From NCBI RefSeq assembly GCF_024521635.1, contig NW_026250414.1, forward strand, positions 930,001 to 994,000: a stretch of 64,000 nt of DNA. Direction: 5' to 3'. Positions within the stretch are counted from its first letter, which is position 1. Every line of letters begins with the position of its first letter. Under the pieces are notes generated by a model. It saw only the letters and a list, made by a program, of their open reading frames with translations. It did not search any database and was not told the DNA's origin. The translations under genes were made by a program, and so were the position numbers. Of this stretch, positions 5,169 through 42,101 are shown in pieces. Source of the stretch: Tricharina praecox. Taxonomy: Eukaryota.

Positions 5169-7532
5169 CTCGAAACTCGAAACTCGAAACACCACTGGGT
5201 CGGCCGCCGCTGTGTGGCGCGGAACGTCGCCAATGCCCACCATACCGTACTCTCTGGTACTGTGGAATACTACCTGGTAGCCAAGTTCTTCAGCCTTACC
5301 CCGACGTCGGTAGAGTAGTATTCAGACTATTCGGGTATCTACATGCAATCCGCATTTACCTATCTAAGTACCTAAAGTTACATGTAGAGTGGACATATGT
5401 AGGTGCACGGAGCACGGAGCACGCCGTGATCACTGATCACTGATCGCGGGAGGCGGGGATAGACGTTGGAGGTATAATTGGACCGAACGATAGCTATTAA
5501 CTACCGGTATAGCGGAGATCTAAAAGCAGGCTGGCCGTGGCTGTCGGTGCTTTTTCGGTATAATCAGTGCGAAGCTTTTTGAGCCGGGGGTGTGTACTCT
5601 ACAGTGTGATCGTGGCCCGCAGCCGCAGGCCCGCGGTGGCTGCCTACATACCCGATATACCTGATCGCCACGAGTGGTGAATATACCAAGTACCTACCGA
5701 TCTGCGCGCCGCAAGGCCAGCCAACCAGCCAACTAGCCTGCCAGAAAGTGCTCGGCTCTACATCCCTAGATCCCTTCCTCCCTTCGACCCTCAGGCGTGG
5801 CTCCAGATACCTCACAAACAACCTCACAAATAACCTCACACCTCACACTCCCCCCCCCCCCCCCCCCCCCCCCCCCACGCCCTCACACTCAGCTCACACT
5901 CAGCTCACACTCAGCCGCACGGCACCGTACAGTACACCTGCTCGAAACGTGCACTGCTTCCAAGCGAGCGCCGAGGCGTTGGCAGCATCGACAGCAGCAG
6001 CACCAGCACCAGCCCTAAATCCTTACGTTAGAGTACGCACATACTTTATACTTACATTACATATACATACGCTAGGTGTACGTGCCCAAGGCGTTTGGCC
6101 CCCCCACCTTACACATCCCCTCCGATCCCCCTACCTTACACCACCTACCCAACAGAACAGACAGAACAGAACAGACACCGGAGCGGAGTCGAGTCGAGTG
6201 GGCAATATCGTATCGCATCGTATCGAAATGTTGCAATTGCGATTGAGTGGGGGGTACTCTACTCTGATGGCATGCATGTTCTCTCCGCCTCCGGGATTGA
6301 GTCATCTGTACGGAAACGGTAGACGCGATGCGAAGATGGTGTGGTGTGAGGCGCGAGCTGTGGTACCGCATGGACTCCACGGCACGTCACTCGCGCACTG
6401 CTCACTGCTCACCTCGCGTAGTAGGTGGGCTGAACGGTCTCGCTCGCTAGGCGGACAGGTGAGATGTGAGATGTGGGACGGACGGAACCGTGCTGCGGGG
6501 GATGGCCGCTCAAACTTCAGAGCACCCAGTCACTTCTCTGGCTGCTAATTCGGTGTCTGCTTGCCTGCCTACGTACGGTACCTATCCACTGTCCAGTGAC
6601 ATGGAACTACTATGTAGCTGCTGGAGCCTACGCTGTTCATAGACTCTACAGCTATTCTCGTATCAAATCACAGGGAGTCGGGGACTACCTAGAGGCTAGG
6701 TTGGGTACCCAGCCCTATAAACGCATATCGACTGCCGGGTTATTGGTCGGGGGTACGATCGTAGCAGTTTCAAGTCAAGTCAAATCAGTCAAGTCAGCCA
6801 AGTCAAACGGGAGGGATTAACCGTTAGAGTGCTTACTCTATTTACATACACGACATACATCCATAATACGGGGAATAGTAATCACGGGACGGAGTGACCA
6901 TTGGAGTTCCATGGACAAGCTCCACGCCTCGACGCCTTGCCTCGCCGTTGCCCGATAGGTCGGTATTTTGATGCAGCTCACACCGGTAGGTGCTAGGTAC
7001 CTGGTAGGTAGAACCCCCCGTCGCCTCAGGGCTGAAGAGGCTCAGCCACGAGAGAGTCGCGAGGAGAGAGTCTCGTGCGAGATCAATCGGATGCCTACTA
7101 CTAGTTCTATTCTGCTACAGCTAATTACCTAAGTAAGTAGAGTACCGTTCGGTCGTCGATCGACACCCGGTTCATTTTGTTGCTTTGTATGTACGGAATC
7201 ATCCATGTGGGTACGGTACGTACCCGACTCACCTAGGCCGCATACCGTACGCAAACCTTGAATTCGGCCCGGCTCAACTATCCTTTTTCTTCTTTTCATT
7301 TCATTTCCTTTCCTTTTCCTTTCCTTTTCTTTTCTTCTCTTCTACTGTCCTTTTTCTAGCACTCCAATATCTGCCTGTCTGCGGGCGCAGGAACGGAGCG
7401 TAAACACGACGATCTCGGCGTGTCCACCCGTCCTTCTCGATGGGGGGAGATATGCGGCTGCGGCTGCGGATACGATTCGCCGTGCTCAGCATGGGCAATG
7501 GGCATTTTCGTATTGGCCGGCCTGGTCGGCTC

Positions 7533-13140: not shown

Positions 13141-15258
13141 ATGTCCTCGACCGGACACGACTTTCCCGGCGGTGCCGAGAAGAAGGAGAAAGAGGAAAAG
13201 CAGGATGAGTTCGCGGACGAGGCGTCGTTGCCGCCGTCTAAGTACGATAATACGCACCGGAAGTTGAAGTCGCGGCATATACAGGTACTTTCCACTGGTG
13301 GAGCCTCAAGGCGGAGGAGGAGTGGGGAGGAGGAGGAGGAGGGGGAAGGGGAAGTTGGCTGATGGTGGTGGTCGTGGTGGTATGATAGCTCATCGGAATC
13401 GGAGGAACCATCGGCACAGCACTCTACGTGCAGATCGGACGGGCATTGATGAAGGGCGGGCCGGCGAATTTGTTTATCGCGTTTACTTTCTGGTATGATA
13501 GCTCTGTGGGCCCGAGTGCTGTGGTAGGTATGCTGTACCTAGGCTGGGAGTGCTAATACCAAAAACACACAGGTGCTCGGTGATCCTTTGCATCAACAAC
13601 TCGCTGTCGGAGATGGTCACATACATGCCGATATCTTCGCCGTTCGTACGGTTCGCGGGGAGGTTCGTCGACGAGAGCTTCGGTGTCGCGGCGGGTTGGA
13701 ACTTTTTCATATTTGTAACCACTCTTCCTCCGAAACTTTATTGTCCCCGACGGCGCAAAGGGCTTACGGAAGGACCGGGTGATTACAGGAGGCTGCTATG
13801 GTACCGTTCGAGATCGTCGCGTGCACGCAGATTCTGGGATACTGGGGGACTTCCGAGAAGGTACACGTTGGCGTCATCATTGCCATCTGCATAGCATTAT
13901 ACGCGTGGGTTCCACCTCGAATCGCATCCCCCGGAGAAATAGTGATGGTTTTTTGACATTACAGCGACTCCTTTCCAGCGGCATCAACTTGATCGTGGTA
14001 AAGTTCTACGGCGAGAGTGAATTCTGGTGTGCATCATCCTTCCGACACACGACATCAACTAACCTCTGCCAGGCTCGCCCTCGGAAAACTCATTCTCATC
14101 ATCGGCCTGATCGCCTTCACCTTCATCACCATGGTCGGCGGCAACCCGCAGCGCGATGCCTACGGCTTCCGGTATTGGAAGAACCCGGGCGCCTTCGCCG
14201 AACACTACTCGACCGGCGACCTCGGGCGGTTCATGGGCTTCGTGGCGTGCCTGATCCAAGCGTCCTTCACAATCGCGGGACCGGACTACGTCGCGATCTC
14301 CGCCGGCGAAGCCGAAAATGCGCGGGTGGTGATGCCGCGCGCCTTCAAAGCGGTGACGTACCGGCTAGTCGGTTTCTTCGTGCTCGGCTCGCTAGCGGTC
14401 GGGATCGTGGTACCGCACAACGACCCGGTGATGCGACGCGCATTCCTCGAGGGCGCGCCAGACGCCGCCGCGAGCCCGTACGTCGTCGCCATGGACCGCC
14501 TGCAGATCCCGTTCTTGCCACACATCGTCAACGCGCTGGTGCTGACGTCGGCGTTCTCGGCCGGGAACTCGTACGTGTACTGCGCTTCGCGGTGCCTGTT
14601 CGGGCTCGCGCTGGACGGGCAAGCGCCGAAGATCTTCGCGCGCTGCACGCGCAGCGGAGTCCCGATCTACAGCGTGCTCGTGGTCCTGGCCATCGCCATG
14701 CTCGCCTTCCTGCAGGTGTCCAACTCGGCGAGCGTCGTGCTGAGCTGGTTCGTTTCCCTCGTCACCGCCTCGCAGCTAATCAACTTCTCCGTCATCCTGT
14801 ACACGTACCTGCGGTTCCGACGCGCGCTCGCCGCGCAAGGCACGCCCATGTCCGCGCTGCCGTACATGACCCGCTGGCAGCCGTACACGACGTACTTCGC
14901 GCTCACGTGCACGCTCGTGATGTGCTTCGTCAGCGGGTACGAGGTGTTCCTCCCTGGGAACTGGAACATCCCGACGTTCCTGTTCTCGTACACGATGATC
15001 GCGGTGTTCCCGTTGATCTGGGTGGCGTGGAAGACGCTGAAGCGGACGAGCCGCGTGCCGCTAGAGGAGGTCAACACGTTCCGCGAGGAGCGCGAGGTCA
15101 TTGACGAGTACCAGAGGAATTATGTGGCGCCGAAACCACGGTGAGTGACATTCTGTCTCGGAAGTCTGATTGTGCCTGCGCGGCCGGGGGGAGGAGGCGC
15201 TGATGATGGTGATGACAGGAACACGTTTTCGAAGTGGTGCGATCGGATTTTCGGGTGA
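13141..15258 (+). CDS. AGP2: Amino acid permease (APC superfamily, fungal YAT family; AGP2-like), ~553 aa, 7 exons
   Basis: Exons 13141-13284, 13389-13492, 13573-13714, 13789-13904, 13979-14026, 14073-15140 and 15219-15258 join in frame through GT-AG introns. Motifs: LKSRHIQLIGIGGTIGT, YGESEFW, GFRYWKNPG, GEAENAR, SAFSAGNS. The family is secure; the AGP2 subfamily is tentative. Confidence 0.92.
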
Positions 15259-18200: not shown

Positions 18201-21200
18201 CCCAATGCGAGACCCAATGTGTAGCGAACCGACGCGTATACATACCTACGGACGGCGAATGGTACTTCGGTATGGTATACCTACTTCAAGCCGTCGTGAG
18301 GAGCGTGCGGCGGCCGCTGAACGAACCATCGCAGCAGCAGCAGCGCTTCCCCTCCCCCGCAGTTCCCGGCCACAGGAAGCAACTGGGTGGTGATATTTAA
18401 CCATCAATAACCGACCGGACTCCGGGGTAACTATGTACCTAGATACATGCTATACATGCTATGCATACATACTATATGTAAGTACCAAAGTACTCTGCTA
18501 TATACTATATACACCCTGTCGCCCAGATCGATGCGACGATGCGACGATGGTGATGACGACATGTACGGTCCCAAAGATGGATGGGTGGGATAGAGTGCCT
18601 ACCTGTCGTGTAAAGAGTCATATCGCAGTAGGTATGCATTCAGGTTTCACAGAGAAATCCGAGATTCCGAGATTCCGAGATTCCCGAGACTCCGAGGAGG
18701 ATGACGGGGCGTGTGAAATCCTAAGGCAGTGACTATACCGTAGTAATGTTTCTTTTGTCTCCCGCTGAAGATGAAGAAGAAGAAGAAGACGAACAAGTCA
18801 CGTATGTACAGACGTACATACATACCTCCTACATACATACATGTGCACATTTAAGCGGCGAGTACCGCAAAGTATCACCGGACCGCTTTCCGTGCAGTAA
18901 CCAGTTGCCAGCTCATCATAGGTAGGGCGCAATATCTCCAGCCGTCGATCCTGGCCTCCACCTGCTGGATAGACGTATGCATGCTGATGTATGTATGAAT
19001 TTATGTATGTATGTAGGCCGGGATTCGATACTGTACCATATTTAGCTTCCGTTTCATGACGCGGTACGTACATACTATGATGCTACATAGGCAAGTTCAT
19101 ATGTATGTAGATGTATGTACGATCCGCCGAAAGCGCTGAGGAAAATCCCAGATGAAGCTGAAGAACCGACATAGGTAGTAGTAGACAGCGGGGGTTTTTC
19201 CGTCTCGTTTTCCCGAAACGAAATGCAAGACGGCGCCGCGGCATACATATATACGTATGTAGTAGAATAGCATACGCTGCGAAGAACAGGCCCTAACTAA
19301 CTATCCATGAAGGGCTGCAAAGCTGCTATATAATCGATTAGTTATGTATGACTTTGTATGTACACCTATCAAAGCTAGCCGAGCATCCATCCATCCCACC
19401 TGCACTGATGGGCCCAGTCCGGTGGAGGAGCTCCTCCGTCAGCGCTAAGTAAGCATCTTCTAAGTTCTTCGCAGCTGCCAGCCGGTGCGAGTGCCCGAGA
19501 GGGCTGGCGGGCGGGTGATCTCCTCCTCCTCATCCTTCAGGCTCCTGGGATATGTATGTAGGGTGGAGTACGGTGGAGTAACTCTAACTACTCGAACGCG
19601 GGTGCGATACACCGTTTTGTCACCATGGAGTTGAGTAGCCGTACTAGTAGTTACTATACGGTACCGTAGAGTAGCCACTCGGTGCAGTTCCTCACCTTAG
19701 AGCTCATCATACCACTCTCGTATGTAGATAGTAGTTGCGATTCCCATTCCCATCCGTATGCACCGCATCGAGCCGAGTCGAGCCGAGTCGAGCCGAGCCG
19801 AGTCGAGTCATGAACGATGGCCTGGGCTGGCCCTTCCCCAGCGCCTGACGTCCGGGGACCATCCCGCGTAGGTACATAGACTTGTCCATGTTCCGGGTCC
19901 ATTCCATCCATATGTAGCAAAACTTCCCCTTCCATGAACCCGACCGACCGGCCCACGCAACTCACGCAACTCACGTGGGGGAGGGACGAGTGAGGTGGTG
20001 GGGGGCTGTGGCTAGTACTTTACACCCACGTAGCGATCAGCCACCACCGCCGCACCCCACCCAGGCGCCACCCACCCATGGGCCAGTCAGTGGGTACGTG
20101 GGTAGAGTAAGTGGGTATGCATACCGTACCGTACCGGAAGTGCATTGCGACTCGCTTCGCTTCACTCGACGCTCCGGCAGGGCGGACGGTAACACGGACA
20201 ACGGATACATACCGGTACTCGCTCGTGAGTCGTGATGGTCGTCGTCGTTGTCGATCAATCACCAAAGTGGAGACAAGTGAAGAAGAGAAGTGTAGAAGTG
20301 GGCTGAATTCGCCATCGATACCTACTGCCACGTTCCCCTACATACCTACCGGCCACGTTCCCCGACACTGCATACACACATACATGTATACATGCATAAG
20401 TACACAGATATACATGCGCGATTGCGTCGTCGTCGTCGCTCTTCCACCGAAAAACAAAAAGGATTCGCCACAGCGTCGGCCTTCGGGCGCACTAGTCTAC
20501 TCGTAGTGATGAAGAGTCCGAGCTGACTGTCTGGCTGGCTGGCTGGCTTGGTGGAGGTGTGTATGGCACCTACATACCGGCATGATGTATTTGGCATGTG
20601 AAACATGTTGCGACATGCTGGATATGCTGGACGTGTTGCGACATGTTGCGACATGTCAACTGCAAGTCTGCAAGTCTGCAAGCCAAACGAGCGAACGAAG
20701 CGCGGGGGCCGGGGCGTAAAACGGGGACCATATGTATGTTGGTAGGTATGTTGGAGAGTCGGCAACTGAATGTGCTCTGGATACTGGGTGTGATAGGGTA
20801 GACTCCGGAGTCCGGAGCAGGTACTGGGTGTGGAATTGCGTATGTGTGTTGGTTACTCTGGTTACTCTGCTCTGCGCTGCTCTCCAACTCACAGCGCCAA
20901 CGATCCATGTCAAAAGCAGTTAGACTGGGAACGATCTTTAACCAAGGGCTTAGGGCGCCTCCCTCCCCTCCGCTTCCCTTCCCTTCCCTTCCCTTCCCGG
21001 CCGTGACATCTTTCTAGGACTTTTCTGGAAGGTCTGAGCGAACAAACAGAACAACAGAAAGTGGGGCCCAAAAACGGTCGGAAGCTTGAATCGGCTAGAG
21101 TTGAGTAACTTGACGCTAGAAGACATGAGAGACCAGACATCACGATTCTTGAATATGGATGAATGAATGGAGGAATGAATGAATGAATTAATGGATGAAC

Positions 21201-21424
21201 GACGGGATGGTCGGTGTAACACCGATCTATATCATCTGTGGGTGTATGTAATGTACGCCACTCTACTATATGGCCTCTCTCGTACGGCGCCGAGTGTCGG
21301 GAGAGAGAGAGAGGGAGGGAGAGAGAGGGAGGGAGGGAGGAAGACAGAGAGACAGAGACACGAGATGACTACGGAGGAAATGTCCGCACGGAGGCGGGGT
21401 GCACGACATGAAGACGGGCATACA

Positions 21425-21455
<31 letters not shown>

Positions 21456-24400
21456 AGAACATAGTGAGCATTCGGAGCGCATAGAACGCAGAACGCAGAG
21501 AACACGGACAACGACGTCGACGCGGGAGGTGCAGGTAGCCTCCCGTTCACACCGCAGCCCGGATCGATGTTGAGGAGCAGGAGGAGCAGGAGCAGGAGCT
21601 GAGTGCGCACATGGCATTGGGTGCCGTCGTGGAACGTCAGCCGCAAGCTGCGCGGTCCAGCGGATCGAAGTTCGAAGTTGAACACTGTGCCTACCCGGCG
21701 TTGCTGCTCCCAGGTTTCAATTGCACTTTACGGTACGACTATTGTTGGCGGTGGTATGTAGAAGTAATAGTAGCAGTAATAGTAGCAGTAATAACCCCCA
21801 TCGCGCAGCACATGGCCTCGGTGCGGCGTGGAGTCCTGGACTGTGATGATGCACTGCAGCCCGAAATACCTATTCCACGGGCAATCGGAAGGGGCACGCA
21901 GCACGCTCGCAGTTTACCTCCAAGCGAGATGGATACGATACCGAAAGGAAAGGAAAGATCATTTGCCGGCGATGCGGGCGATCCCCTTCCTGGGTATTTT
22001 TTCGAAATTTTATAGGTAATCCGGTGCAGCCTTTTTTCCGTTCTGGTTGGCCCATTGACTCTTGAAGGGAGTATCGACAAAACTAATGCAGTCGGATGGC
22101 ATGGGCGGAAGAATAATGATTTGTTTTTCTTACCTGAGCGCCCCTGGTTCCAGCAGTATGGTTCATACCCCCAAGATTGGGATTGCTTATCCAGCCAGCA
22201 GCCACAGCAGCAGCAAGCCCCTCCTCCTCCTCCTCCTGCTGATCCGCCTTCCTGCTCCTTCCTACTCCTCCGCCCCACCCCACCAGTCGGAGTGGTGTGG
22301 TCGAACGGATTGTCGGTGCCGGGATGGTCGTGCTGATGCGCTGACCGTCGATCCTTCACGAGCAAGGGGAGGAGGAGGAGACACAACACCTTCTCCAGAT
22401 ATCATCCCAGAGGCAGAGGCAGGCAGGCAGCTGGAGAGTAGGGTAGAGTACTCTAGAGTACAGGCGAAGAGAGACACCCCCCCTCCCCCTCCTCCTCCTC
22501 CAAGAGGATCGTCATTCCGCCGAAACTCAAACCCGCGTGCGTGTATGCGATGGTGATGGTGTTAGGTAGGGTTGTCGCTGGTGACTAGGCAGCTGCTGCA
22601 TAGGAACACGTATACCTACACCTACCTACTCCAAGGGCATCCGGCGGAGGAAGGAAGTTATTATGCGGCCCTACTATCGTGAAGAAAGAGGAGAGAGGAG
22701 GGGAGGGGAGAGGGGAGGAAAAGGGGGAAGGCTGTACACTGCACACGTCGAGGTGGGCATGGGCGTGGTCGTGGTCGTGGTCATGATGCGGCGCTCGCTG
22801 CACACACACCCTGGTGTATCATATGATACTTACCTAGAGTACAGTGCTCAACCCCCCCTCCCCCTCCCCACTGCAAGTGCAGTGCAGTGCGGTGCACCGT
22901 GGAAGCGCTTTTCGTTCGTTCGTTCGTTCGTCGGTCCGTTCGTTCGTTCGCAAGCCTACCGGTACTCGCAGGAAGAACCTAGGCTCAGTAGAAGCAGCTA
23001 CGTCGTTGTGCATCGGGTAGTTTGTTACTAGTTTCGACTCTATATAGTAATAGTTAGCAGATAGTAGTAGCAGTAGTAGTAGTTAGTAGTGGCTCTCCGG
23101 AGGTGTCGAAACTCGGGCCTGAAGACGTGCAGCGTTTGGGCCGAGCTCTGGAGTCTGCACGTGGAGTACTATACCCACCACTATGTACTTACGGTATGCG
23201 CCACGAGCGGTCACTAAACACCCGAAACACGTTGTCCAGCGGTACTATACGGCAATGTACCGCGGGTAGAGTACCGTAGGTGGCCGTGGACCGACAGCCC
23301 CCGTAGGTACGTACCGCGTCGAATCGAAGTGGTATCCGCTGCGAGGCACGATTGATTATGGCCCATGGGCGCCGGCTCCATGGTGTTTGACGTCCGAAGG
23401 TGGCAGCCAGATCCAGCTGCGGTAACGCTGCCCGCGGAGGGAGCGGGGGGTTCCCTACTCTTCCGCAATCTCATGACCACGGTCCACCGCCCCACCACCG
23501 CGATCGAGGGGCAGGGCAGCAGCACTGCGATCGAGGGCAGCAGTAGCACACGCCAGAGAGCCAGCCGGGGACCTGAGGTGCTTGGGTGCTCTAGCGGACA
23601 TCGGCTTGACGGCCAGCAGCCTCCTCAGCTCCAGGAAGTAGACTGAATGCCATCCGTCAGAGTCTCAGGCCCCCGAATGCCATCCGTCAGACTCCGAAGC
23701 GCCATCCGAGTGGCTCCCGAATCCCGATATGTATAGTAGTCGCTCGACCACATGCTTGGAAAGCGAGCGAGCAATCGAACGAGGCACCTCCTCCACCTCG
23801 ACCGGTCCCAAACCCCCCAAACCCCCCCCACTCCAGGCATTCCCCGCACCCACAAACGCAACATACGCAGAGTACCGTAGTATCAGAAGTGGGTGGTTAG
23901 GCAGGCAGGCAGGCAACTAATGTAGGAGACGCTCTAGGTAGTAGGTATCTACCCAGTCGGTCCGTTGCGACCTGCACTCTGTGCTCTGCCTGTGTTCTGC
24001 TTACCTTTGCACCCCCTCCCTCCCCTCCTTCCCTTCCCTACCCTCCCCTCGTAGACGGGGATCTTCCCTGCACCGCGTCGACTCTAGGGAGACGACCGAG
24101 GAGCGACGGACGAGCGAGCGAGCAGAGCCGTCACTGTCACCACCGCCGTCACCGTCACCGTCACCGTCATGGCTGAGGCTGCTATGTATGCTGCCATGCC
24201 ATGCCGTGCGCGAGTATATGTAGAGATCCGATGCACCTCAGTACCCGTCCGGCCGTTCCATACTCGCCCGTCCTACAAAAACTCAAGTCAGCCCAGAAAG
24301 TCGGAAAGTCCGTGCACGCACAGAACAAAAAAACAACCGACAAAGCGATTCCCGTCACTCCGAGGATCCACCACACGCAACACACGCAACACACGCTCCA

Positions 24401-25617
24401 CTCACTCACTAGTCGGTCGGTCAATCACTCAATCACTCAATCACTCAATCAGTCGGTCGGTCGGTCAGTCGGTCGGTCAGTCAGACAAACAGTCAGCCCA
24501 AGTCTCGGATTCCCGTCCTCCTACGCTGCAGTGATCCCGATATACACCCATCACCACCGTCCCACGCCTTACGTGCGAATCTCCAGCTTCACACGCGCCT
24601 CGCCTCCTCCTCCCCCCCGCTCCCCCGCTCCCCCCCGACCGAAAGTTATACACAACGCACGCCACCTACAAGACGACCCTAAGTGTCGGTTAGTGGCACG
24701 CCAGGCCAGAGACCAATCCGAACGGGAACGCCGTCTCCACTCGTGCTCGCCCCCGGCTGCTATATCTCCATACAGGCAACCACTCGGCCTAACGCAAAAG
24801 AGGCGTAAAGCATAAACCCATAGCGAAAGCAAACGAAACCGCTTTTGGGCGCTGTCCGTCATCAGTGCCAGAAGAAGGAGGGGTGCCACATCCTTAATAG
24901 CTAGGGTTTTTTTTTTCTTTCTTTCTGGAAGGAAGCTGTCACAACCCAACCACGCATCATCATCGTCCTTAGCGTCCGTCCGTCACCGTTCGTTCGTTCG
25001 TCGCGTAAAAGAGAAAAGCGAAAGAAGAAGAAAAAAAAAGAAGGGAAAGAGAAGAAGAAAAAAAGTTGCACCTTCCCGAGTGGCAAATTTCCTGGTCTTC
25101 CTCCTCGGTTTCACTTCTCCTCATTCTCGAGAGGGGCACAAATCGCGAAAGTCAATCACGGGCCAAACGCCATTTAAAGAGTCGGCCAAGGACCATCTTC
25201 CGGAAACTCCTGACTGTGGAGAATTCATCAGCGTCGTCAAACTTTGGATATTCCTTACAAACCAGAGCCCTAGGTAGTTGCCGGCGCACAAGTGAAAGAG
25301 GTATGTAGGGAGCAGAATCCTGGCCGACTCTCCGAGCAACGTCCACTCCCCTCCCCTCACCCCCTCGCTACATAGAGTACAAGCGCTAACTAACTGGCAG
25401 GCAGACCCAAGCACCAAGAGATCCTACGCACCCCACCCGAACTCCGATAGTTATCGAATCAGACGAACACGAGACCACAGATAAATAATCCGTCCCCGAC
25501 CAAAACCAAAGCCGGACCCCGACCAGACCAGACCAGATCACCGGACCGAACTCATTCAACATCCCCCCACCCTCTCCCAAACACACATACACACACACAT
25601 CCACCTTCACACCCACG

Positions 25618-25773
25618 ATGATCTGGACATGCTGTCGGTGCGGGCAGAAGAGCCATTGCACAACGTGCGACTGCGGCCATAACTTCTGCCTGAGTTGCGT
25701 CTACTGCCGGAAACCTCGAGCACCAGTCTTCAAATCGTTCCGTCAGAAATGGTCGGCCATGCTCAGCAGTTGA
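25618..25773 (+). CDS. 51-aa Cys/His-rich putative zinc-binding microprotein (MIWTCCRCGQKSHCTTCDCGHNFCLSCVYCRKPRAPVFKSFRQKWSAMLSS)
   Basis: 9 Cys and 2 His in a WxCCxC...CxxCxCxHxxCxxC pattern; A at -3. A canonical upstream intron lies at 25301-25400 (GTATGT..GCTAAC..CAG). There is no plus-strand ATG from 24234 to 25617 except the one inside that donor. Confidence 0.65.
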   Translation: MIWTCCRCGQKSHCTTCDCGHNFCLSCVYCRKPRAPVFKSFRQKWSAMLSS

Positions 25774-26613
25774 GCGGGATCGGTCCACCACACACTCGTT
25801 CATCTTTCTCCTTGCCGCTCCTCTAATGGTTCGAGCCGTCAATCCCCTACGCCTCCATCCTCCTCCTCCACCGCCGCTTCCTTCGCCTCCTCCGCCACCA
25901 CCTCCTACGCTTCCTCCGCCTCCTCCTCCGTCTCCTCGCCACGGCCAGGGCAGCTGTCTACCCACCTACCTACTGGGGTAGACCACAGTTCACCTTGCAC
26001 CCGTACCTGTACCTATCCCGGCGACCAATCCATTTTCCACCTTCCACCGCTACGAAATTCCTACGTTCACGTTCACGCATCACGATTCTTGTATATAGTT
26101 TGGGCGCTGGGGGGCAGTGGGGGCGCTGGTGGGGGTACTGGGTGGCGCTTTGGTGGCGGCGGGCTTGCTTGTGGTGGGCTGCGGTGGGTACGGTGTAGAT
26201 GGGGTGTTTTTTTTCCTTCCCGGGTTTCGTTCCTGTTCCTGTTTTTTCTTTTCGCGCACTATACCTAATGGCATGAGCTTGGGCATGGGCTTGGACCGTT
26301 CGACGTCGATGATGGTGCTGGTAGTGGTTGTGGTGGTGGTATCGATCGAAGAGCCCCCACGATCATGATTCACGATCACGATTGCACGATTTTGGGGTCC
26401 GGTCTGTGGGCGGGCGGTGGGTCGGTGCGTGGGTGGCTGGCTGGCTTGTCTCGGTTTTCTTTTTTGCCATGTATTTTATGGTTTTTGGCGTTTGAAGTTT
26501 CATCATTGGCAGCAGAAGCACCGATCTCGTTCCTCGAGTCTCGTCTCTTCGTGGGCATGGGTGGGGGGCATGGGCTTGGGCGGCCGATTGAGTCGAACGT
26601 CGTCGACGTTGGA

Positions 26614-26654
<41 letters not shown>

Positions 26655-26897
26655 TTGCAGCACCGCATGCCACAACCAGCTACTAACCATCAACGTCAAC
26701 GTCACCCCTCCTAACCCCCCCTCGCGCCCCTCCACTCCCCGCATGCCCGGATAGGTGGTTAACGTCCTAGCTGGCCACCGACGCGCCTGTCCCCACAAGG
26801 AACCAGGTACAGTGCATCCCACCTCGGGCCAATCCAGGCGCACATGCTGCGGTCTCCACCTTCAGTTCTCTTGCTGATCCGACCGAAAGAACGAACG

Positions 26898-27020
26898 AAA
26901 GAAAGAAAAAGAAAAGAAAAAGAAGTAAAAAGAAAGCAAAAAGAAAAGAAAAAGAAAAGAAAAAGAAGTAAAAAGAAAGCAAAAAGAAAAGAAAAAGAAA
27001 AGAAGGAAAGTAGGAGAAAA
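26898..27020. repeat. A-rich polypurine tract (AAAAG-type degenerate repeat)
   Basis: About 120 nt of almost pure A/G; gives spurious poly-Phe and poly-Lys ORFs. Confidence 0.85.
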
Positions 27021-30000
27021 AACGTGCACCTCGTGGCGAATCGATTGCTTGCTTGATTGCTTGCTTGGTTGCCTGATTGATTGATATTGATATTCCTATA
27101 TGCATCGGCCGGATGCACCAGGCTCGTGGGTGCCTGGGTGGGATGTGAGATCATACGCAGTAGAGTACGTAGACACCCAACCTCGAAGTTTAACCCCACG
27201 CCACGCCACGCCGGCGCCGGACAACGTCTGCGCTGGCTGGTCGCCCGGCCAGAGTGTCCGAAGGTTTGGGAGTGGTTGGTTATGCATATGTAGAGTACGA
27301 GTACTGTGCTGTACGCTACTTTTGTCTTTTGTATAGGATTGGAGGGAGGGGGGTCATTCGCCGGTACATTCCGGCTTGGTGGGGGGTTCGCTCGTGCGTG
27401 AGTCGTGAGCGTGAGCGTGAGTCGCGAGCATGAGCGTGAGCGTGAGCGGAGCTCGACGGAACTCGACGGAATAAACAGGGTGGGGCAGAGTAGGTAATTG
27501 AGTCAGTGCCGCCGGGATGGCTTCTCCAGTCAGTCGGTCGGTTGGGAGTGGTGAATGGGAGTGGACACTTCCGACAGACAGACGGACGGACACGGACACG
27601 AAAACGCCGAAAATGCCGACGACGCCGACACAGGGACCCGTGAGTGGTCCGCGATTCGGACGGACTTTTTACAGTGCCTAACTACGGTCTACGGTACTAT
27701 GGGTTCGCTACGTACAGCTGTCGTAGAGTAGAGCAGTTAGAGTAGAGTACCGTATGTAAAGTATCGCCTCCTCCGGCCCTGCGATCTGGAATGCCATTTT
27801 AGAGTACTCGTATACTATCTATAACCACAGCAGTCGTATCCCCCGCTCCGGTGGTCGCGGCATGTGGGTGAGACGGTGGGATGATTCCCGAATCCAGGGA
27901 CTCTCGCACGTACTACCTATCCAGGTATACTACTATATACAGTATGTACCTATAGTATACGGACAGGATCCTCCACTGTCCAGGCTCCGGGAATATCTTA
28001 CTCCGTATATCCGACGTCCGCAGGGTACGGTACGTATCATGGGTTATCGTTAACTACGGCCCTACGATCATGTGATGCGCCACGATATCTAGAGTAGGTA
28101 GGTATCGAATTCCCGGCTTCAGCGTTTGGCCAGTGGCCACTGTGGCTCCCCCGCGCTTCGCCATAGCAAGTCGGTATTGCCAGTGGCCCCTAACTTCGTG
28201 TGCATACATATGGACCCCCCAGGAGACCGGTGCTTGCGATGCGATTCGTGATGCCGGGGATGGAACGAACTTCCGTGGATGTGATGCGCGCAGGACAGTG
28301 CGCGGACGGTCTCCACCGTCCGTAAGACATTAGGGGGCGTGGGGGCACGTGTTCCCCCACGTTCAGGACTCCAGGAGGACGCCCGGGAGGCTTGAGCGTC
28401 ATCGGCATCCATCATTGAGGATGGGAGAAGGGAAGCTACCTACTGGTAGTCTGGGTCTCGCGTGAGTCAACCATCTAGGTATGTACATATGATACTCTAC
28501 ATCCGAGTGTGGAGAAAGGTAGGTAGGTACGTATGCCATGTACCTACGAGGCTACCGTATGCCTATTCCAGGGTGCAAGAGACAGGATAAGCATTTACAA
28601 CGTCGGGGATAATGTCGAGCTACCAGTAGGCTGTAGCTAAGGGGAGTCCGAGCCTCCGAGCTGCAAGAATACGCGGGGTGCCGATTGATGCGGTGCAGGG
28701 CTATGATATGTATCTAGGTATGTACCTGGGTATGATATGTATCTATCATATGTATGATGTGTACCTAGGAGAGTGCGATTGCTGTACATACCGCGTAGGT
28801 ATGTAGATATGTACATAGACAGCAAGTCAATCGAGCCTTTGTCGCAGCCCCCACTCTCCTCCTGAGTTCTCCTTCTCCCCCAGGCTCCAGCCTCCTCGGT
28901 TTTTCCGAAGTGCCCCCCCAAAAAGGTGCAAGAACACGGCCCCCAATTCTCCAAAGTATGACGATCCCCCGTTCGTTCGACAAAGTGCACTGTGCACCCC
29001 CACCCGAGAGGAGGCCCCCACCGCTCCTTGCAGAAGTGTTCTTCTTCTCGAAGCTCGAACGATCCCCTCCCACTACCCAGGTTTGATACATAGTCAGACA
29101 GTGAAAGTTGCAACATACATACCGGTGAGTCGTAACCGGTATGTAGCTACGGTGGTGAACTGCCGATTGGAGCTACGGTACATACCTTCCAGGTAGTACC
29201 ATAGAATCCGGCTGGATGGAAGGAAGGAACATGGAAGGAAGAAAGGAATATTGGGCAGCTGCACTAGCAGCTGGTTAGTTAGTTACGGTTTTATGTATGT
29301 ATGGTATATATGTACAATACATGTCCAGGTTCGTCCCTGGCGATGTTGGTTCGGTCGGCGGGCTGTGTGTATGTAGAGCACGGTGTGCATAACTATCCGT
29401 GGTTTGTAATGTATGTAGGGAGTGGGAAGTGGGAAGTGGGGAGTGGGAAGTGGGGTAAAAGGGACCGCAGCCTGAGCCAGAGGTGTTACTGCTTCAGGCT
29501 GCCGCATGGCCCTCCGTCGAGGTAGGAGAGCTTTGTCGCAATTGTGCGGATACATACTCCTAGCTAGCTGATTGGCATTGCAGCACACATACTACATACT
29601 ACATACCTACTACATACCAGTACATAGTACATATCCGAAATACCGCGTTTGGGTTACAATTCCGCAACTCTTCCCCACAGCCTTGGGAGGTTATGTACCG
29701 GCCGGGGTGGGGGGGATTGGCGAGATGCAGAACCCACCTATCCATCTCCTGCGGCGCCATTCATTTCCGTAGAACCGGCAGCTATCTGTGGAGTATGTAC
29801 CGGTATGGAACTCTCGATTATTCCCGCCCTACAAAACCGACTTCCGAGCAGCTGTCTCAGACCCGTTTGCTCGACTTTCAACCGAGCGAGGGGCCGGGGT
29901 CGGGGCTGGGGAGTGCTCGAGAACTGGATATCATCGTATGTATGTAGAGTACCTAGAGTACTAGTTAGTACGGTACGGTGTGTAGGTAGGTAGGTGCCGG

Positions 30001-32360
30001 TGATCTATCAATCCGACCCCCGACCCCCGTACCCCGCCCGGCTACGATTGAGGCTGGAGATACTAGCACTAGCACTCAGCGTGCGTGCGCGTCGCAGCCC
30101 ATCGAACCCCCCACAACTCGTATCTCATGCTTCGATCGTGGATCGATGTGCAGAGTGAGAAAACGTGATCGGCTACCTGGGTATGTGCTATACCCATTTG
30201 TCCGGCAGGGGATGTCTCGTATGATATCGTACTCCCAGGGTGCTCCTCCTCCGATAGTAACTAACTAGAACATACGTACCGACTATTAGTTAGTAGGTAG
30301 TCCCCTCGCAATCTCAGCGTAAGCCTACAAGTGATTAGTACATAGTACCTACATAGGTAGTTTCTGGCACTGCGTCACTTTGCATCGATGTCTAGCAAGG
30401 ACCTCCCAGATCGGATGATAGTTACTAGTACTCCACCTAGTCTTCGAGTCGGATGCGCAGATGTAGGGTTGTAGCCATCCAATTGGGCAATTGAGCGGCG
30501 ACGAGTGGACTGCGGGGGGGATTCGATGAAGCTTTTTTTTTTCTTTCTTTTTTTCTTTGCGGATCTACATATGATGCTAGGGATGCGCGTTAACTACTTA
30601 GACCCGGGGTTTGCGTGTCTCGCTTTGAAACTCCCTTCACAGGGGGACGGACGTCGATCTGCCTGCTGCTGATGCTGCTGCTGCTGATGTGTGAGGCGAG
30701 ATCTACATATCATCTAGATATGGCTGAAACCTACATACCGTACAATTCCCACCAACCGCCGGTACCGCGCAGGACGTTCGTGTACGGTACTCTACTCTAT
30801 ATGATCCACAGGTTACATACAGCAAGTAGTTTTGTATGTACCTAGAGTACAGGTAGGTAGCTGCTGGCACCAGCACGTACCCAAATACTGCGTTCGGCAC
30901 CGCTGGAGATCCCCGCTCCCTTCCTCCCTCCCTCCCTCGCTCCCTTCCTCGCTTCACAGTTCTGGATTGCGTTGGTGATGTCTGGCGGGCTGCAGGCTAA
31001 GATTGCCGTCGGAGCAGGAGTGGACTCACCTGCAAGGCAGATTTTCCTACACAGCTGAAGCGGAGTTGATCCGAGTGGCTGGCCGCTGGCCAGGTCCCCC
31101 CCGCGCCGCCTAGTTTCTTCCAGCCAGCCAGCCAGCCAGCCAGCCCCCGTCATGTCGGAGGGGGGGATCCTCCATCCATCGAATCCCTGCCTGTCCGGCC
31201 GGGACACCAGAACGGACTGGAGGTGGAGGTGGAGGTGGCTGGCCAGTGGGTGCTGTGGGTGCTGTAGGCAGTGACCGCGTGATCAGCCATGCGGCTGCAC
31301 ATCATACTTTTCCATAGCGTGTGTAGAGTACATAGATGGTCCGAAGGGGGAGAATGCCAGCGCCAATCCATTCGCATCGGGCAATTGGCAACTCGACTCA
31401 ACTGGATTCAACTCGCAATCGCTGTGTACATATGATGTGCCCCATGTAACTATTCTCCGACTGCACGGAAGGAATAATACGGTAACTCGATGGCCTACAT
31501 GGCAATCTAGCCGGTTCCGGATTAGAAGGGAGCCTCAGGTCGGCCATCGTTTTTCGTCTGCTGGCGCCGAGTAGAGCTCATGTAGGAACTAACCAGGGCG
31601 CCGCATAATCCGGCCTTATCAGGTTTTCGATGCAAAGTTCCAAGGTCGTCGGAACTTCGAGTTGGGCCTGTGCAACCGAAGCGCCGCGGCGGCGTCTGCC
31701 CAGCCTATAGTAGAGCAGGCAACTACTAGTTCCATCGTGGCCTGATTCCGTGCGGCGTGGACAGGTCTAGGCTTCGAGAAGGTCCGCAAGAATTGGAGCT
31801 AGCTGGCGCCGGGAGTTTTATGGCAGTTGCCGAGAACTCTGCCTACAAAATCGAGGGGAGGGGGCACGTGCTTTTCGGAACTGTCCCGGGCTGACTAGCG
31901 TTGTCGACGGTGATCACTGATCACTTGCCGACGGATTTGAAGTGCGGTGCCGAAAAGTGGGTTGTATGTAGGAATGTATGTAGTGTAAGAGGCTCGGAGA
32001 ATTAGTTTCAATTCGATTCGGCGCGTTGACGGTTGGGTGGACGTTGAAGACACGGTCGCTTCGCATGCGTACAACCGCCATAGCCGCAGAGGGTATGACG
32101 TCTCAATTATAGTAAGCGGCTGGACTCACCCGAAGAGATATATGTAGGAGTTAGGATCTAGATATCCTGGTGCGGCGTGGTACGGAAACTTGAAAGTCCA
32201 GTGTTTTCACGTAAAGTTTGGAATTGTCCATACGGAGTCGTGCCTGCTTAGTGCAAATCGTGAAACGCCGGCGAAACTCCATCAGCGGTTCGCTCCCATA
32301 GGCTACCTACCTTCTCTTGCGTACTGCTTTGCTCATAAACCAACAGTCAACAAATCAAAT

Positions 32361-33611: not shown

Positions 33612-34427
33612 CTAACCCGAGAACACAGCGGGTCCAGGGATAGTGTAGCTCGACGGCACGGGGTAGTAGATGTTGATAGTAACACCGGGATCGCTGGACT
33701 TGTATGCGCCGGGCAACTTTACGGTAGCGGGGCTGGCCGATCCACCGCCGGTAACACTGATCTGAGCGCATCCCATGTAGAACTGCGCGCCTCCGGCCGA
33801 GCTGGCACCGTGCAGCGCGATCACCTCGGACCGCAGCAGGTAGTCGCCGCTGGGGATCGAGGACGGGATCTTAGCGCTGTAGATTCCCTTTGCTGCCACC
33901 AGCTTGTCCACAGCCCAGTACAGGCTGCCGTCGCTCTGCACGGTCATACCGTCGTGCTGGATCTTGAACCAGTTCAGAGACTCGGGGGCGGTGGCCGAAA
34001 CGACATCGGGGACCTGGGGGGTGTTAGTGGGGAGGAATTGAGGGAGAGAGGGAGAGAGAAATGTACCTTGGCCAAGTAGGTTATCACGGGACCCTTGTGG
34101 GAAGGATCGATCGCCTGCGTGTCACGCCCTCCATGGTGCCATTCCAGCTGGACGGTGGAGCCGGCAGCGACGACGAGCTTGGTGGGACGGGTGACGCCAC
34201 CGTTGACGTTGCAAGCCATGGCGGAGGAGGTAACTATTTTTCCCAAGCTGTTAGGACGTGTTACTTGTAGAGGGAGAGGCGACGGGAGCTAGCTACATAC
34301 CATCGGTGACGGGGTTGTTGTTGGGCGGAGGACGGATGACCGCAGAGTTGTCGTTGATGTACTGCAGCGTGGCGTGCGAGTGCACGGCGGTGGCGAGGGC
34401 CAGGAGAGCGGCGAGAGTGAGCTTCAT
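33612..34427 (-). CDS. Secreted AA9 (GH61) lytic polysaccharide monooxygenase, 231 aa, no CBM1
   Basis: Exons 34427-34301, 34233-34067, 34013-33612. Signal peptide MKLTLAALLALATAVHS is followed by His1 (HATLQY). Other motifs: EWHH, SHKGP, WFKI, GDYLLRSEVIALH, AQFYMGCAQ, YTIPGP. TATATAA at 34541-34547 (minus). Confidence 0.96.
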
Positions 34428-36767: not shown

Positions 36768-38454
36768 TTAGACGACGAGCGCGTCGGTACCTTTCGTTTT
36801 CCGGCTCTCAACACTCGTCTTTGCGCTTCGTGCACCAAATTGGACCGCACGTTTCGCCTCCGCGGCGGCAGTGGGCATACCGAGTTTCTTAGCGAGGAGT
36901 CGTAACACCTTCTTGCCGTTCTCGATGCCGTCATCTTCGCTCTTGCCGAAGGAACACTTTCCGGTAACGGGTGTGCGCATTGCCCACGCCACGACCTTGT
37001 CGTCGAGGAAAGGATACCGCATCTCTTTCGCCCAGTGCGCGGCTACGCGGTCGTCCCGGCCGAGGTTACGTTTCCCGAGACGGAGAAAGTCGAGATTTAG
37101 CTCGTCGAGGAGACCTTGGTAGCCGGCACGACGGAACGCGGTTGAGTGCCGGGAGTAGCCACCGAAGAGCTCGTCTGCACCGAGGCCGGAGAGGAGGATC
37201 CGCGCGGGAGTGGTGTAGTCGTCGCTTTGGCCGCGTGCGGCGAAGTAGAATGCGAGGGCGATGGAAAGGTCCATTTCGGTGTTGTGTGGATGCATCAGGT
37301 GGATCACCGTAGGGCGATGCGCGAGAAGTTCGGTGTACGGGACATTGATGGATATGAAACGCCAGAACCGAGTAGGACACGTTTTGCGGAGTTCGTGGAA
37401 GGAAGAGAGACCGGTTGTACGATCGGGGCAAAGGGCGTAGGGGTCTATTTCGACGGGATCGGTGCCATCAACTTTGGTGCCCTCCTTCTTCGCTGCTGCG
37501 TTCCGTGCTGCTACTATCCGAGGATTCTCGAAGGCAACGTTGAGGAGATCCACTGGCTCGTCTGGGGGAAGAATATCATGTGCGATCCGAGCCATAGTGG
37601 TACAATCCACACCGCCGCTGAATAAGATTGCAACCCGGACGTCGTCTTCAGGCCTGGCTTTCCTCAGGCGAGAGTGGAGATCGGTATCCGGCGGAAGTTG
37701 AATATCTCTCACACGCAACCGCAAGCTCTTGACTAACGCATCGTGGAGCGATGAAACCTCGGGAGAGTCGATGTTGAGGATAGCGGACTCATCGTCGACA
37801 GTAGGAAGGGCCATATTCATCTTTGGAACCTCATATAACTGTCCTCCGGTCAGTCAGTCCAACCCACCGCTCACACATCATGCTACGCACCATCTCCGCA
37901 TCTTTTCCTAGCGTATGCCAGATCATTTCCCCTGAAACAACATCAGACCTCCACACACCCCCCGTCTCAATCTCTTCCCAGCCGCCCTTATCATCGCCGA
38001 CACTCGCAACCATCAGCGTATCCTCCTCCCTCCGCATGACCAAACTCCTCCTCCCGGCCCAATCGCGCCCAAACCAGCATACGCCCAACGGCGCATCGTA
38101 GAAGACAAACGCAAACTCCCCCTCAAGTTCACGAAGCCCATCTATCCCGCGCGCCAAAAGCAATTCGAACACCGCCAGTGTATCGTTCTCCCCCGGTGGG
38201 AGTGGCACACCGGTTATCCGCCATGCCTCGCCGTTCCAGCAGAGTACTGATCCCGTCGTTGGATCTTCCAATGGCTGTGGAATGGGGGTGGAGCCGCGCA
38301 CCGAGAGGAGACTGGAGGTGAAACTTTGCGTCCGTCCGTTCCGGTGGACGACACGGGTGCGTATGGCGTCGGGGCCGCGGTGGGAGATCAGCGCAATGTG
38401 GTCGGCCGAGGGTGAGCGGGGGGCTGAGGAAATGGAATAGAGGATTCCGCACAT
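36768..38454 (-). CDS. ASNSD1: Asparagine synthetase domain-containing protein (ASNSD1 / yeast YML096W-like), ~544 aa
   Basis: Exons 38454-37891 and 37838-36768. Ntn-amidotransferase motifs MCGI, RGPD, WNGE, GRDWAGRRSL; synthetase-domain motifs ILFSGGVDC, DLLNVAF, GLGADELFGGYSRH, RNLGRDDR. Confidence 0.93.
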
Positions 38455-38558
38455 TGCGGAAAATTTAGGCTGTTCACGACATTCTTGGTTGTGATGTGGA
38501 GCGGAGTCGGGGGTGGTGCGAAGGTTGGACGGTGGGTAGGGTAAGCCACGGAAATGGA

Positions 38559-38625
38559 CCAGGTTGTCACCACGGAGCCGCCCAGGTTGTCACCACGGAG
38601 CCGCCCAGGTTGTCACCATGGAGCC
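38559..38625. repeat. 23-bp tandem repeat (CCAGGTTGTCACCACGGAGCCGC) x~3, ~105 bp upstream of the ASNSD1 start
   Basis: Directly visible. Confidence 0.9.
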
Positions 38626-39315: not shown

Positions 39316-40294
39316 CTAAAACTGCATCAAGTGGGGTCGGTCGCCCTTGCTCAACGAGAAGGACGAGGCGATGTAACTCTTAAGCTCGGGAACCTTGGCG
39401 ATGTTCTTGACGAGAGCAGCATCGACCTCCTTCTGGTCGGACTTGCGGATGTCCGGGGTCTCCTTCTTCTGTATTGTAGAAATAGACATTAGAACTCCTT
39501 CATCTCTTGGCTGCAATGAGGAGTCGAAAGGTCACAACGTACGGTCACCTTGTCGCCCTTGAAGAGCTTCTCCTCCTTGGTCTTCTTCGCCTCCTTCTCG
39601 CGAGCGAAGTACTTGTCGTCGAACTTGTCGACGTTAACACCAGCAAGGTCGACGGTCGTAGAGGTGGCGATCACGTAACGAGCGTTGACACGGCGAAGAG
39701 GAACGCCGTTAACCTTGAAGGGACCGGTGACGAGCAGGATACCGTTGGTCAAAGCCTTCAGGAAAACGACACGCTTGCCCCGGAAACGACCAGCGAGGAG
39801 GATCAGGACGCAACCGGGCTTCAAGGAAGGACGGAGGGTGGTCGGCCTGATGGACTTGCGGACCTGTTGTGGGAGCTCAGGTCAGCATGATATCCCAAAG
39901 CTTAGGTTGCGTGGAGCTCGAGATGGACGATCGACAATGGAGTGACAGTAGCAGCAGAACCCGCTTTCTCTGATGAATATTCTGTGAATTCCCTCCTCTT
40001 ACTATCTGCATCTCGAAAGCTGTAGACCAAGGCTCTTCTCCGTGATTCCCGCAATTTTCCAAGCTCTTTCTCTCTTCTCTCATAGTCCCCACAGCTGCTT
40101 CTGCCACTCGTCCATTTCCGACCATCGATCTCGTCTCTCACAGATCCGCTGAGATTGACCCATCACGCACAGAGAAAACCGACCTTCTTGGGCTCCGCAT
40201 CCTCCTGCGAAGGGTACCACTTGGAGGACCTCTTGAGCGGGACCTCCCGCTTTCCGGACCCGAAGGAGATTTGCTTGATATCGGCCGTCGACAT
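39316..40294 (-). CDS. RPL6: 60S ribosomal protein L6 (eL6), 192 aa
   Basis: Exons 40294-40184, 39863-39549, 39468-39316. Motifs: [61 protein letters not shown]. Confidence 0.97.
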
Positions 40295-40811: not shown

Positions 40812-42101
40812 ATGCCCGCAACCCAACCCCTCATCGCCATCAAGGCCGGCAAATGCATTCAGGAAGTGAGCTTCATCTAATGCTACTTGCTGCGACCTGG
40901 AGTTGACTCTTGTTCCTACAGTCCAACACCATCATACCGAGCCCCGAGCCTGGTCTGCTTTACATCTACGTGAATCCCGATGAAGGTACTGACTACAATC
41001 CCATCCCATCCCGCGCGGCAGGCACTCTGCTACACCCACAAACTAACCACTTCAAAACCCCAGAGCTGCTGCACCACTTCTGCTGGAAACCTCGTGGCGC
41101 CGTCGAGCCCGAAGACGACCTTCTAATATTCCCGGGCGATGCGAAACTCATACGACACGATACCGGTCCAACCGGCCGCATCTTCATGCTCAAGTTTTTG
41201 TCTTCCTCTCAGCGCAATTTCTACTGGCTTCAGGCGCAATCGGAAGACCCGAATCAGCCCGGTCTCTGGAGCGAGCGCGACAAGGGTTGGATAAAGAAGA
41301 TCGACAGCATCCTGCAGGGCGAGGAAGCAGCCGACGACGAGGAGATGGGTGATGCGCCGATCGACAGCACCGAGATTGAGCAGGAGGGTGAACAGCCTAG
41401 ACGCGGCGGCGAGGATGGTGGCAGGGCGTAGGTTTTTCATTTCCTTTTGCTTCCATCTGGCTTCTGTTCCTGTTTCCTGTCTGGCATCACTTCATCATGG
41501 CTCTACACGAAATCGCTTGGTTGGGGTGGTCCTGTACACTTGGCGAGTATTGAATCGCATTTTAATTGCTTCTCTTTGAGGCGAATCGTTGCTTGTGTCC
41601 GTGAGCTGCGTGATGTACACTTCACTTTGTAGATGGATAACAAGGCTGACGGTGTGTCCGTCTTGATCGGTTGTCAGGCCCGCTGCTCCGCAGTTCGACC
41701 TCACGTCACTCCTCTCCCAGATCAGAGTTCCCGGTGGGCCAGCTCGCCAGCAGGAGCCTCCTATCTCACTTCACGATCTCCTCGATCCAAGTGAGACTGT
41801 CGGCTTGATCGATCACGTGTCGTTGGAGACCATTGATAACATGATCGCCAATCTTCCGCCGGCATTGGTCCCTAAGGATGCCAGTGAAGGCCAGAAGAGG
41901 CAGATCATTACCAAGGTTCTAAGATCCCCGCAATTCACGCAAGGCGCGATCGGTCTCTCGGCTGCCCTTCGCGAAGGCGCCCTCCGGGGTGTTGCCGACA
42001 GCCTGAAGGTGCCCATCCTGCCTAGCGAGGAAACTACTGCAGCCGACCAGGTGGAGGCTTTGGTGAGGGGAATCAAGCGGGAGATTGAGCGCGAGCAGTA
42101 A
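40812..42101 (+). CDS. RPN13: Proteasome ubiquitin receptor Rpn13/ADRM1 (PRU domain plus C-terminal UCH-binding domain), ~301 aa
   Basis: Exons 40812-40865, 40922-40985, 41064-41427, 41678-42101. Motifs: IKAGKC, PEPGLLYI, HFCWKPR, GRIFMLKFLSSSQRNFYWLQ, VLRSPQFTQ..LSAALR. Confidence 0.92.

Follow-up and report, generated by a model that had tools for sequence, protein, structure and literature searches.

We begin by considering the small zinc-binding and metal-binding proteins that lie closest to the subject of this study, a 51-codon open reading frame (ORF) in a 64,000-nucleotide (nt) stretch of contig NW_026250414.1, which as a whole we call the window. RING domains of the C3HC4 type follow the eight-ligand consensus C-x2-C-x(9-39)-C-x(1-3)-H-x(2-3)-C-x2-C-x(4-48)-C-x2-C, hold zinc in a cross-brace and bind a ubiquitin-conjugating enzyme. 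Zinc ribbons and rubredoxin-type knuckles (archaeal Nop10, the zinc knuckle of aIF2-gamma, rubredoxin) have an N-terminal W-x-C-x2-C-G knuckle, then C-x2-C. In metallothioneins the cysteines form CxC/CxxC clusters, aromatic residues and histidines are rare or absent, and there is little constraint outside the cysteines; those of fungi are of a length similar to that of our peptide. The Ascomycota family PF26652 (Zn_ribbon_double, "probable double zinc ribbon") has a pattern of two adjacent Cys/His knuckle pairs. The locus in the window is probably a true microgene that codes for protein in an ascomycete of the Pezizales type, with a product predicted to be a two-zinc binding module followed by a basic tail. 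It gives rise to a spliced, abundant plus-strand messenger RNA (mRNA) that carries one conserved ORF, and comparison among sequences of the Pezizales type shows this ORF to be a coding sequence on which purifying selection is strong. That the peptide is translated, holds two zincs and uses the module and its tail for a binding role inside the cell is what we infer from these observations.

The ORF (51 codons and a TGA stop) encodes a peptide of 5.9 kDa with an isoelectric point of 9.17. Re-reading the sequence, we recover what the first-pass annotation, made from the sequence of the window, had listed: nine cysteines and two histidines in the pattern WTCCRC-x5-CTTCDCGHNFCLSC, and then a basic tail. 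All nine cysteines fall within the first 30 residues, and the tail, which makes up about the last 22 residues, bears a charge of +6 and contains no acidic residue.

Relatives of this peptide are few among known proteins. A phmmer search of 1.84 billion representative sequences gives eight matches with an expectation value (E) of 1e-3 or below, two of which are true relatives, a 51-residue protein of Choiromyces venosus and a 211-residue metagenome protein (P0001); P0003, P0006 and P0008 were rejected as repeat-rich sequences in which the motif is absent. A word-indexed search, returning one near protein from the single sequence and two from the profile, adds a 52-residue protein of Pyronema omphalodes; the same kind of search for longer proteins yields none, which speaks weakly against fused forms. 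The Pyronema protein (strain CBS 100304, CCX16161.1) is 71% identical over its full length and is annotated as "Protein of unknown function", with the UniRef name "RING-type domain-containing protein"; the Choiromyces protein (RPB05362.1) is a hypothetical protein and is 53% identical, again over the full length. Both have the start, all eight conserved cysteines and His21 of the window peptide. The 211-residue length of P0001 is a gene-calling artefact of the metagenome locus L004-L006, where the TGA stop is read as W and the start is placed 97 codons upstream of the true ATG. As a side observation, prokaryote-style calling on fungal metagenome contigs here conceals a true 55-codon ORF. The gene had been described as hidden and probably unannotated: its exact peptide is indeed absent from a collection of 15 billion proteins, whereas the homologues of 52 and 51 residues are annotated, and the family is already in the databases only as two entries of "unknown function". 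We found no paper for the homologue accessions or for the double-zinc-ribbon family names. The only ground for a presumed placement in the Pezizales is these two named homologues.

A scan of metagenomes provides 14 further loci that encode relatives with identities of 53-92%; when the two annotated proteins are included, identity to the peptide of the window spans 51-92%. None of the 14 loci has lost the shared ATG or the TGA stop, and their ORFs have 51 or 55 codons; the base at -3 of the start codon is a purine in every locus. Full-length similarity, the shared start, the TGA and an invariant ligand pattern place the window peptide in a family of 51-55 residues with eight cysteines and one histidine (Cys8His). 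The ratio of non-synonymous to synonymous substitution (dN/dS) lies between 0.00 and 0.22 in all 16 unsaturated pairs of the 36 that nine distinct coding sequences allow; the remaining 20 are saturated, with a proportion of synonymous differences (pS) of at least 0.75 and a non-synonymous one (pN) of 0.16-0.28. The window and its closest relative, L001, whose peptide is 92% identical, are separated by 11.5 synonymous and 4.5 non-synonymous differences, and L007 and L013 by 12 and 1. Variable columns are distributed over the first, second and third codon positions as 20, 17 and 45 of 55. The Cys/His pattern, on whose conservation at related loci the first-pass annotation had staked its proposal, is thus retained there under strong purifying selection.

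When positions 20000-31000 are compared by blastn with eight of the loci, no block other than the ORF aligns to all of them, and conservation of the rest of the transcript is limited to the closest relatives. A tblastn search with the 822 window ORFs of at least 30 residues in 8000-45000 gives matches only from frames that overlap either the ORF or the part of the leader that L001 has in common with the window. No conserved ORF is found downstream of 25773 by blastn or tblastn against the related loci, and within 4 kilobases (kb) of the relatives' ORFs tblastn finds nothing else in common with the window.

In the alignment of 10 sequences, 22 columns are invariant: M1, W3, T4, C5, C6, C8, C14, T15, T16, C17, C19, G20, H21, C24, L25, S26, C27, V28, Y29, R31, P33 and R42, the last three in the tail. 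The invariant ligands are eight cysteines and one histidine, CCxC-x5-CxxC-x-CxH-xx-CxxC, and the ninth cysteine of the window peptide, C30, is present in 5 of the 10 sequences and has no partner. The four knuckles (C5C6xC8, C14xxC17, C19xH21 and C24xxC27) would suffice for two tetrahedral zinc sites, and the two-zinc micro-domain with a basic tail that had been proposed earlier is the best reading of this conserved ligand pattern. Two cysteine pairs that could serve as zinc-ribbon knuckles, C5/6xC8 and C14xxC17, are present in the 10 sequences. With the AlphaFold model as query, the top Foldseek rows are zinc ribbons, aligned over 23-27 residues at a root-mean-square deviation of about 1 Å and insignificant (E >= 1.8), and the rubredoxin segment MNWTCPECG aligns to residues 1-11, also insignificantly (E = 3.9). 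A zinc ribbon, however, forms one site from two CxxC knuckles on beta-hairpins, whereas the microprotein has ligands for two. Family PF26652 appears as a language-model look-alike with a score of 0.76, which is in the chance range; its proteins have about 225 residues against 51 here, and hmmscan does not report it at E <= 10. The best ESM Atlas scores, 0.85 and 0.82, are likewise in the chance range and serve as leads only.

The likeness to RING domains needs closer consideration. Among PDB profiles, the best match is that of the segment CGHNFCLSC (C19-C27) to the C3-H4-C5-C6 core in the RING of TRIM31 (PDB accession code: 2ysj), with E = 0.007 over 14 residues; the spacing C5/6-x-C8-x10-C19-x-H21-xx-C24-xx-C27 fits RING ligands one to six; and Pfam zf-C3HC4_4 is matched weakly by 5 of the 10 members (best E = 0.013, below the family threshold in strength). 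Together with the UniRef name of the Pyronema homologue, these agree with a microprotein formed by a truncated RING, which would either hinder or help ubiquitin ligases of the RING type and in which C14xxC17 would supply the last ligand pair. We regard this as unlikely. No conserved C-x2-C follows C27 in the 10 sequences, so that ligands seven and eight are absent and C30 stands unpartnered; unlike a RING, the microprotein has an extra invariant CxxC in loop 1 and a module of about 27 residues. The matches span 14 residues and reach no Pfam threshold, the weak structural neighbours of the model are zinc ribbons and not RINGs, and the phmmer search returned no larger RING protein of related sequence among the representatives. 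The internal C14xxC17 could substitute for the lost RING ligand pair; a sequential arrangement of the two sites is the other possibility. A more speculative proposal, which we hold at low confidence, is a lineage-specific "permuted mini-RING" in which ligands one to six are kept and the internal CxxC replaces C7/C8, giving a two-zinc cross-brace in 27 residues; this small protein would either modulate RING ligases in a dominant way or bind nucleic acid, with its output set by the GTGGCAAA element and the intron-cleaned AUG-free leader described below.

A metallothionein-like metal buffer, in which thiolate clusters sequester copper or zinc without a defined binding domain, had been offered by the first-pass annotation as an alternative product. 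Nine cysteines within 30 residues, the small ORF and the high contig depth relative to the flanks would agree with it, but the pattern of constraint would not: W3, Y29 and H21 are invariant, thirteen invariant columns are non-Cys, and the residues T4, T15, T16, G20, L25, S26 and V28, with W3 and Y29, point to a fixed fold. The knuckles are spaced as CxxC and CxH, unlike the CxC clusters of metallothioneins, and the conserved basic tail has no obvious role in metal storage. We therefore consider a metallothionein rather improbable. A secreted disulfide-rich peptide (antimicrobial, a pheromone or the precursor of a modified peptide) would likewise be small, Cys-rich and cationic, and is very improbable: the 10 aligned sequences show no hydrophobic N-terminal signal (the start is MIWTCC, with the first cysteine at residue 5) and no CAAX box at their C-termini, which end in LSS, LRR, LSD or LGG, and the invariant histidine sits inside a CxH knuckle, as is typical of zinc sites.

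We turn our attention to the transcript. Nine sequencing runs were found, and the contigs of four (X1, X2, X4 and X7) were placed on positions 22000-29000; X1, X2 and X4 come from three studies, with 25-31 million letters of contigs each. The ORF lies on X1 record 4 (2853 nt, depth 129.5, covering 23564-25298 and 25399-26516), on X2 record 11 (23602-26105, depth 141.6) and on X4 record 19 (25134-26100, depth 30.4). These ORF-bearing contigs have depths of 30-142, against 2-13 for the flanking contigs. In X1, X2 and X4 there is a skip of 100 nt with GT..AG ends, which after a shift of 2 nt coincides exactly with the 5' untranslated region (UTR) intron that had been predicted, so that the splice joint 25300 to 25401 is base-exact in three of the four runs examined. 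This joint shows that X1, X2 and X4 contain spliced RNA, and its orientation gives the plus strand; a real plus-strand transcription unit, as claimed, is therefore seen in three studies. X7, a metatranscriptome, has short low-depth pieces only and no joint, and its contig 25384-25534 runs unspliced across the 3' boundary of the intron. A second, weaker intron had been suggested at 24689-24775; the contigs of X1, X2 and X4 continue unspliced through this segment, and it is thus not used. The contigs cannot reveal the true 5' or 3' ends of the transcript, and within the placed region contig cover is mostly absent over 26680-29000, where the uncovered parts are uninformative.

Several features of composition accompany the transcript. 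The sequence upstream of the ORF is rich in C and A, whereas over 26090-26700, in the 3' part of the transcript, G and T prevail, and the GC skew of -0.27 over 24001-26000 is the strongest of the window (-0.22 is found at 46001-48000, adjoining the casein kinase II beta gene). Microsatellites are abundant in the transcript and its flanks (24128-24169, 24411-24496, 25016-25065, 25852-25937, 26601-26654 and 26898-27004), of the types CCGTCA x7, AGTC-type x21, purine-rich 25-mers, CCT x28, CGTCGG x9 and AAAGAAAAGAA x10, and several are located at breaks of the RNA contigs. An Rfam scan of 22500-27500 gives no match below E = 0.6; the mir-598 match at that value is a chance match to the CGTCGG repeat.

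The first-pass annotation also described a leader of about 1.4 kb that is free of AUG once spliced. Upstream of the ORF, in the 1384 nt of 24234-25617, an exact count confirms a single plus-strand ATG, at 25303, inside the GTATGT donor of the intron; with the intron removed, the ATG-free run before the start codon is 1284 nt. On neither strand of the window is there an ATG-free gap longer than the interval 24231-25303 (1072 nt); those that follow it in length have 943, 831 and 743 nt, and over the window ATGs average 16.5 per kb. The composition of the leader is C 475 (34%), A 393 (28%), G 272 (20%) and T 244 (18%), and dinucleotide shuffles of it predict 5.35 +/- 1.98 ATGs against the one observed, with one or none in 1.7% of 1000 shuffles. 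The depletion is genuine, yet partly compositional, and what remains is modest given that the region was chosen for this property. Other long ATG-free stretches of 743-943 nt occur at 5397-6228 (+), 46558-47301 (+) and 1265-2208 (-), and may be additional long leaders or driven by composition.

The leaders of the relatives follow a similar architecture. L002 has a predicted intron of 137 nt (GTATGT...GCTAAC...TTAG) at a matching position, -313..-177, and an AAAGAG context directly precedes both this intron and that of the window (-317..-218). Introns of 58 nt are predicted in L004 and L005 (GTATGG...GCTAAC...TTAG), and L007-L009 have one of the same length (GTAAG...GCTAAT...TTTCAG). In each intron-bearing locus the ATGs closest to the ORF fall within the intron. 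The ATG-free runs before the start, introns removed, are 1284 nt in the window and, in the other loci, 421 nt or more, 502, 626, 247, 485, 370 and 370 nt, and 478 nt or more. Taken over the last 420 nt before the ORF in nine distinct loci, which are not independent lineages, there are 3 ATGs against 25.9 expected with verified or predicted introns taken out, and 10 against 29.2 with the introns kept; the 420 nt after the stop codon have 38 against about 49. Two metagenome contigs, L013 (1-1002) and L014 (1-1072), are 99.9% identical; they lack exactly the 58-nt segment that is intron in L007-L009, and so resemble contigs of spliced RNA. Both start about 478 nt before the ATG, no more than 3 nt apart, and judging from them the mRNA of that lineage may be roughly 1 kb long or longer. 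As a separate observation on L001 (300-421, compared with 25079-25617 of the window), only about 100 nt and no intron lie between the GTGGCAAAT/TTTAAAG blocks and the ATG, where the window has about 430-520 nt, intron included; a CAACCA-type repeat occupies this part of L001, and the short leader of L001 may stem from a deletion or from a different splice, or else the contig may be complementary-DNA-like.

The upstream region also contains a conserved element, AGTGGCAAAT, which occurs once in the window (0.05 expected). In the window, as in each of the 14 related loci, its core GTGGCAAA precedes the ORF by 121-538 nt on the plus strand; no other 8-mer is common to all nine distinct upstream regions, and 0.003-0.011 occurrences of the core are expected per locus. 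In the Choiromyces-like loci it is present as a tandem duplicate. The core may be either a cis-regulatory site or an element of the leader RNA. Copper-responsive, Ndt80-type and CSL-type sites were considered and none fits exactly.

Combining this information, we arrive at the model that we favour, a small zinc-stabilised binding module that most likely works inside the cell. A 27-residue N-terminal module would hold the two predicted zinc sites, and the basic C-terminal tail would touch nucleic acid or an acidic protein surface. On the side of expression, the 5'-UTR intron, lying in a leader of several hundred nt, would take out the only nearby ATGs, and with the rest of the proximal leader depleted in ATG, scanning ribosomes could get to the ORF. 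The conserved GTGGCAAA element upstream would be part of the same architecture.

There are points that weigh against this model. On the side of the transcript, the RNA contigs start at 23564 (X1) and 23602 (X2), about 670 nt upstream of the ATG-poor leader, and the spliced contig carries 12 ATGs before the ORF, all within 23647-24231. If the RNA from 23564 is a single molecule, the spliced leader is about 1.95 kb long, and the 12 upstream ATGs would hinder scanning; of the leader claim, the ATG-free run stands, and the extent of the leader may differ. The alternatives are either such a leader of about 1.95 kb that is not AUG-free, or overlapping transcripts with differing start sites that were merged in the assembly. 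The upstream pieces of X4 (24327-24901) have a depth of 6-7, against 30 for its ORF-bearing contig, which hints at a major start site further downstream. The RNA or DNA labels of X1, X2 and X4 are themselves a guess, the RNA nature following from the spliced joint, and contig depth, one figure per contig, is a poor gauge of expression. Nor do the related loci represent independent lineages: L004 and L005 are all but identical, and L007-L009 and L013 resemble one another. On the side of the protein, the window peptide matches no Pfam family at E <= 10, the AlphaFold2 model built on the 10-sequence alignment has a mean predicted local distance difference test score of 63 (low confidence) and contains no metal, Foldseek finds no match to it better than E = 1.8, and with VIA none of 48,161 chains reaches Z >= 2. 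A long non-coding RNA in which the ORF is incidental would account for an ORF of 156 nt within an RNA of at least 2.85 kb and for up to 12 upstream ATGs if the start is at 23564, but it is hardly credible in view of the low dN/dS, the start and stop kept at all 14 loci and the variation concentrated at third codon positions, in a transcript whose remainder is unconserved past the closest relatives and has no significant Rfam match.

The surroundings of the gene are collected in the table, together with the features of the locus itself. The window has 113 stop-to-stop ORFs of at least 130 residues, 12 of which have Pfam matches, and the micro-ORF occupies a roughly central place in a stretch of about 18.5 kb where no gene is recognisable. 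It had been called the only candidate gene in about 17 kb of non-coding flank, which is roughly right: none of the 31 ORFs of at least 130 residues between the permease and AA9 genes has a Pfam match at E <= 1e-4, although genes that have no Pfam domain would be invisible in this way. The arrangement had also been called typical of heavily regulated genes; heavy regulation of this gene is a conjecture.

Table. Positions of the microprotein gene, its transcript and the recognisable genes around it (numbering of the window)
Feature	Positions	Strand	Basis or remark
Coding sequence of the 51-residue Cys8His microprotein, TGA stop included	25618-25773	+	conservation, dN/dS, alignment
Abundant RNA contig, extent (2853 nt spliced)	23564-26516	+	strand from GT..AG intron
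C/A-rich ATG-poor leader	24234-25617	+	one ATG (25303, intronic); none once spliced
Conserved upstream element AGTGGCAAAT, core GTGGCAAA at 25080-25087	25079-25088	+	
TATA-like block CCATTTAAAGAGTCG	25170-25184	+	alignment reading; common to L001 and L002 only
5'-UTR intron of 100 nt, GTATGT...GCTAAC...CAG	25301-25400	+	spliced contigs from three studies
3' UTR, at least about 740 nt	25774-26516	+	contig extent, sequence; G/T-rich after about 26090
Amino-acid permease	13502-15141	+	Pfam; nearest upstream recognisable gene
AA9 lytic polysaccharide monooxygenase	33615-34121	-	Pfam; nearest downstream recognisable gene
Asparagine synthase-like gene	36771-38589		Pfam
Ribosomal protein L6e	39492-39881		Pfam
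Rpn13	40907-42098		Pfam
Casein kinase II beta	46929-48442		Pfam
DUF7580 protein	49461-51032		Pfam
2OG-Fe(II) oxygenase	63066-63461		Pfam

The locus is a clear case of a conserved and abundantly transcribed eukaryotic microprotein that is overlooked by the usual length cut-offs, and in the collection of 15 billion proteins only two genomes' annotations include the family. Should no function emerge from the leads given here, it would be an ordinary hypothetical small gene. With two predicted zinc sites in 27 residues and no curated family that fits, its structure, once solved, could establish a minimal zinc fold, or a derivative of the RING, that is new, and the 5'-UTR intron, the AUG-poor leader and the upstream 8-mer are handles on the ways in which filamentous fungi express very short ORFs.

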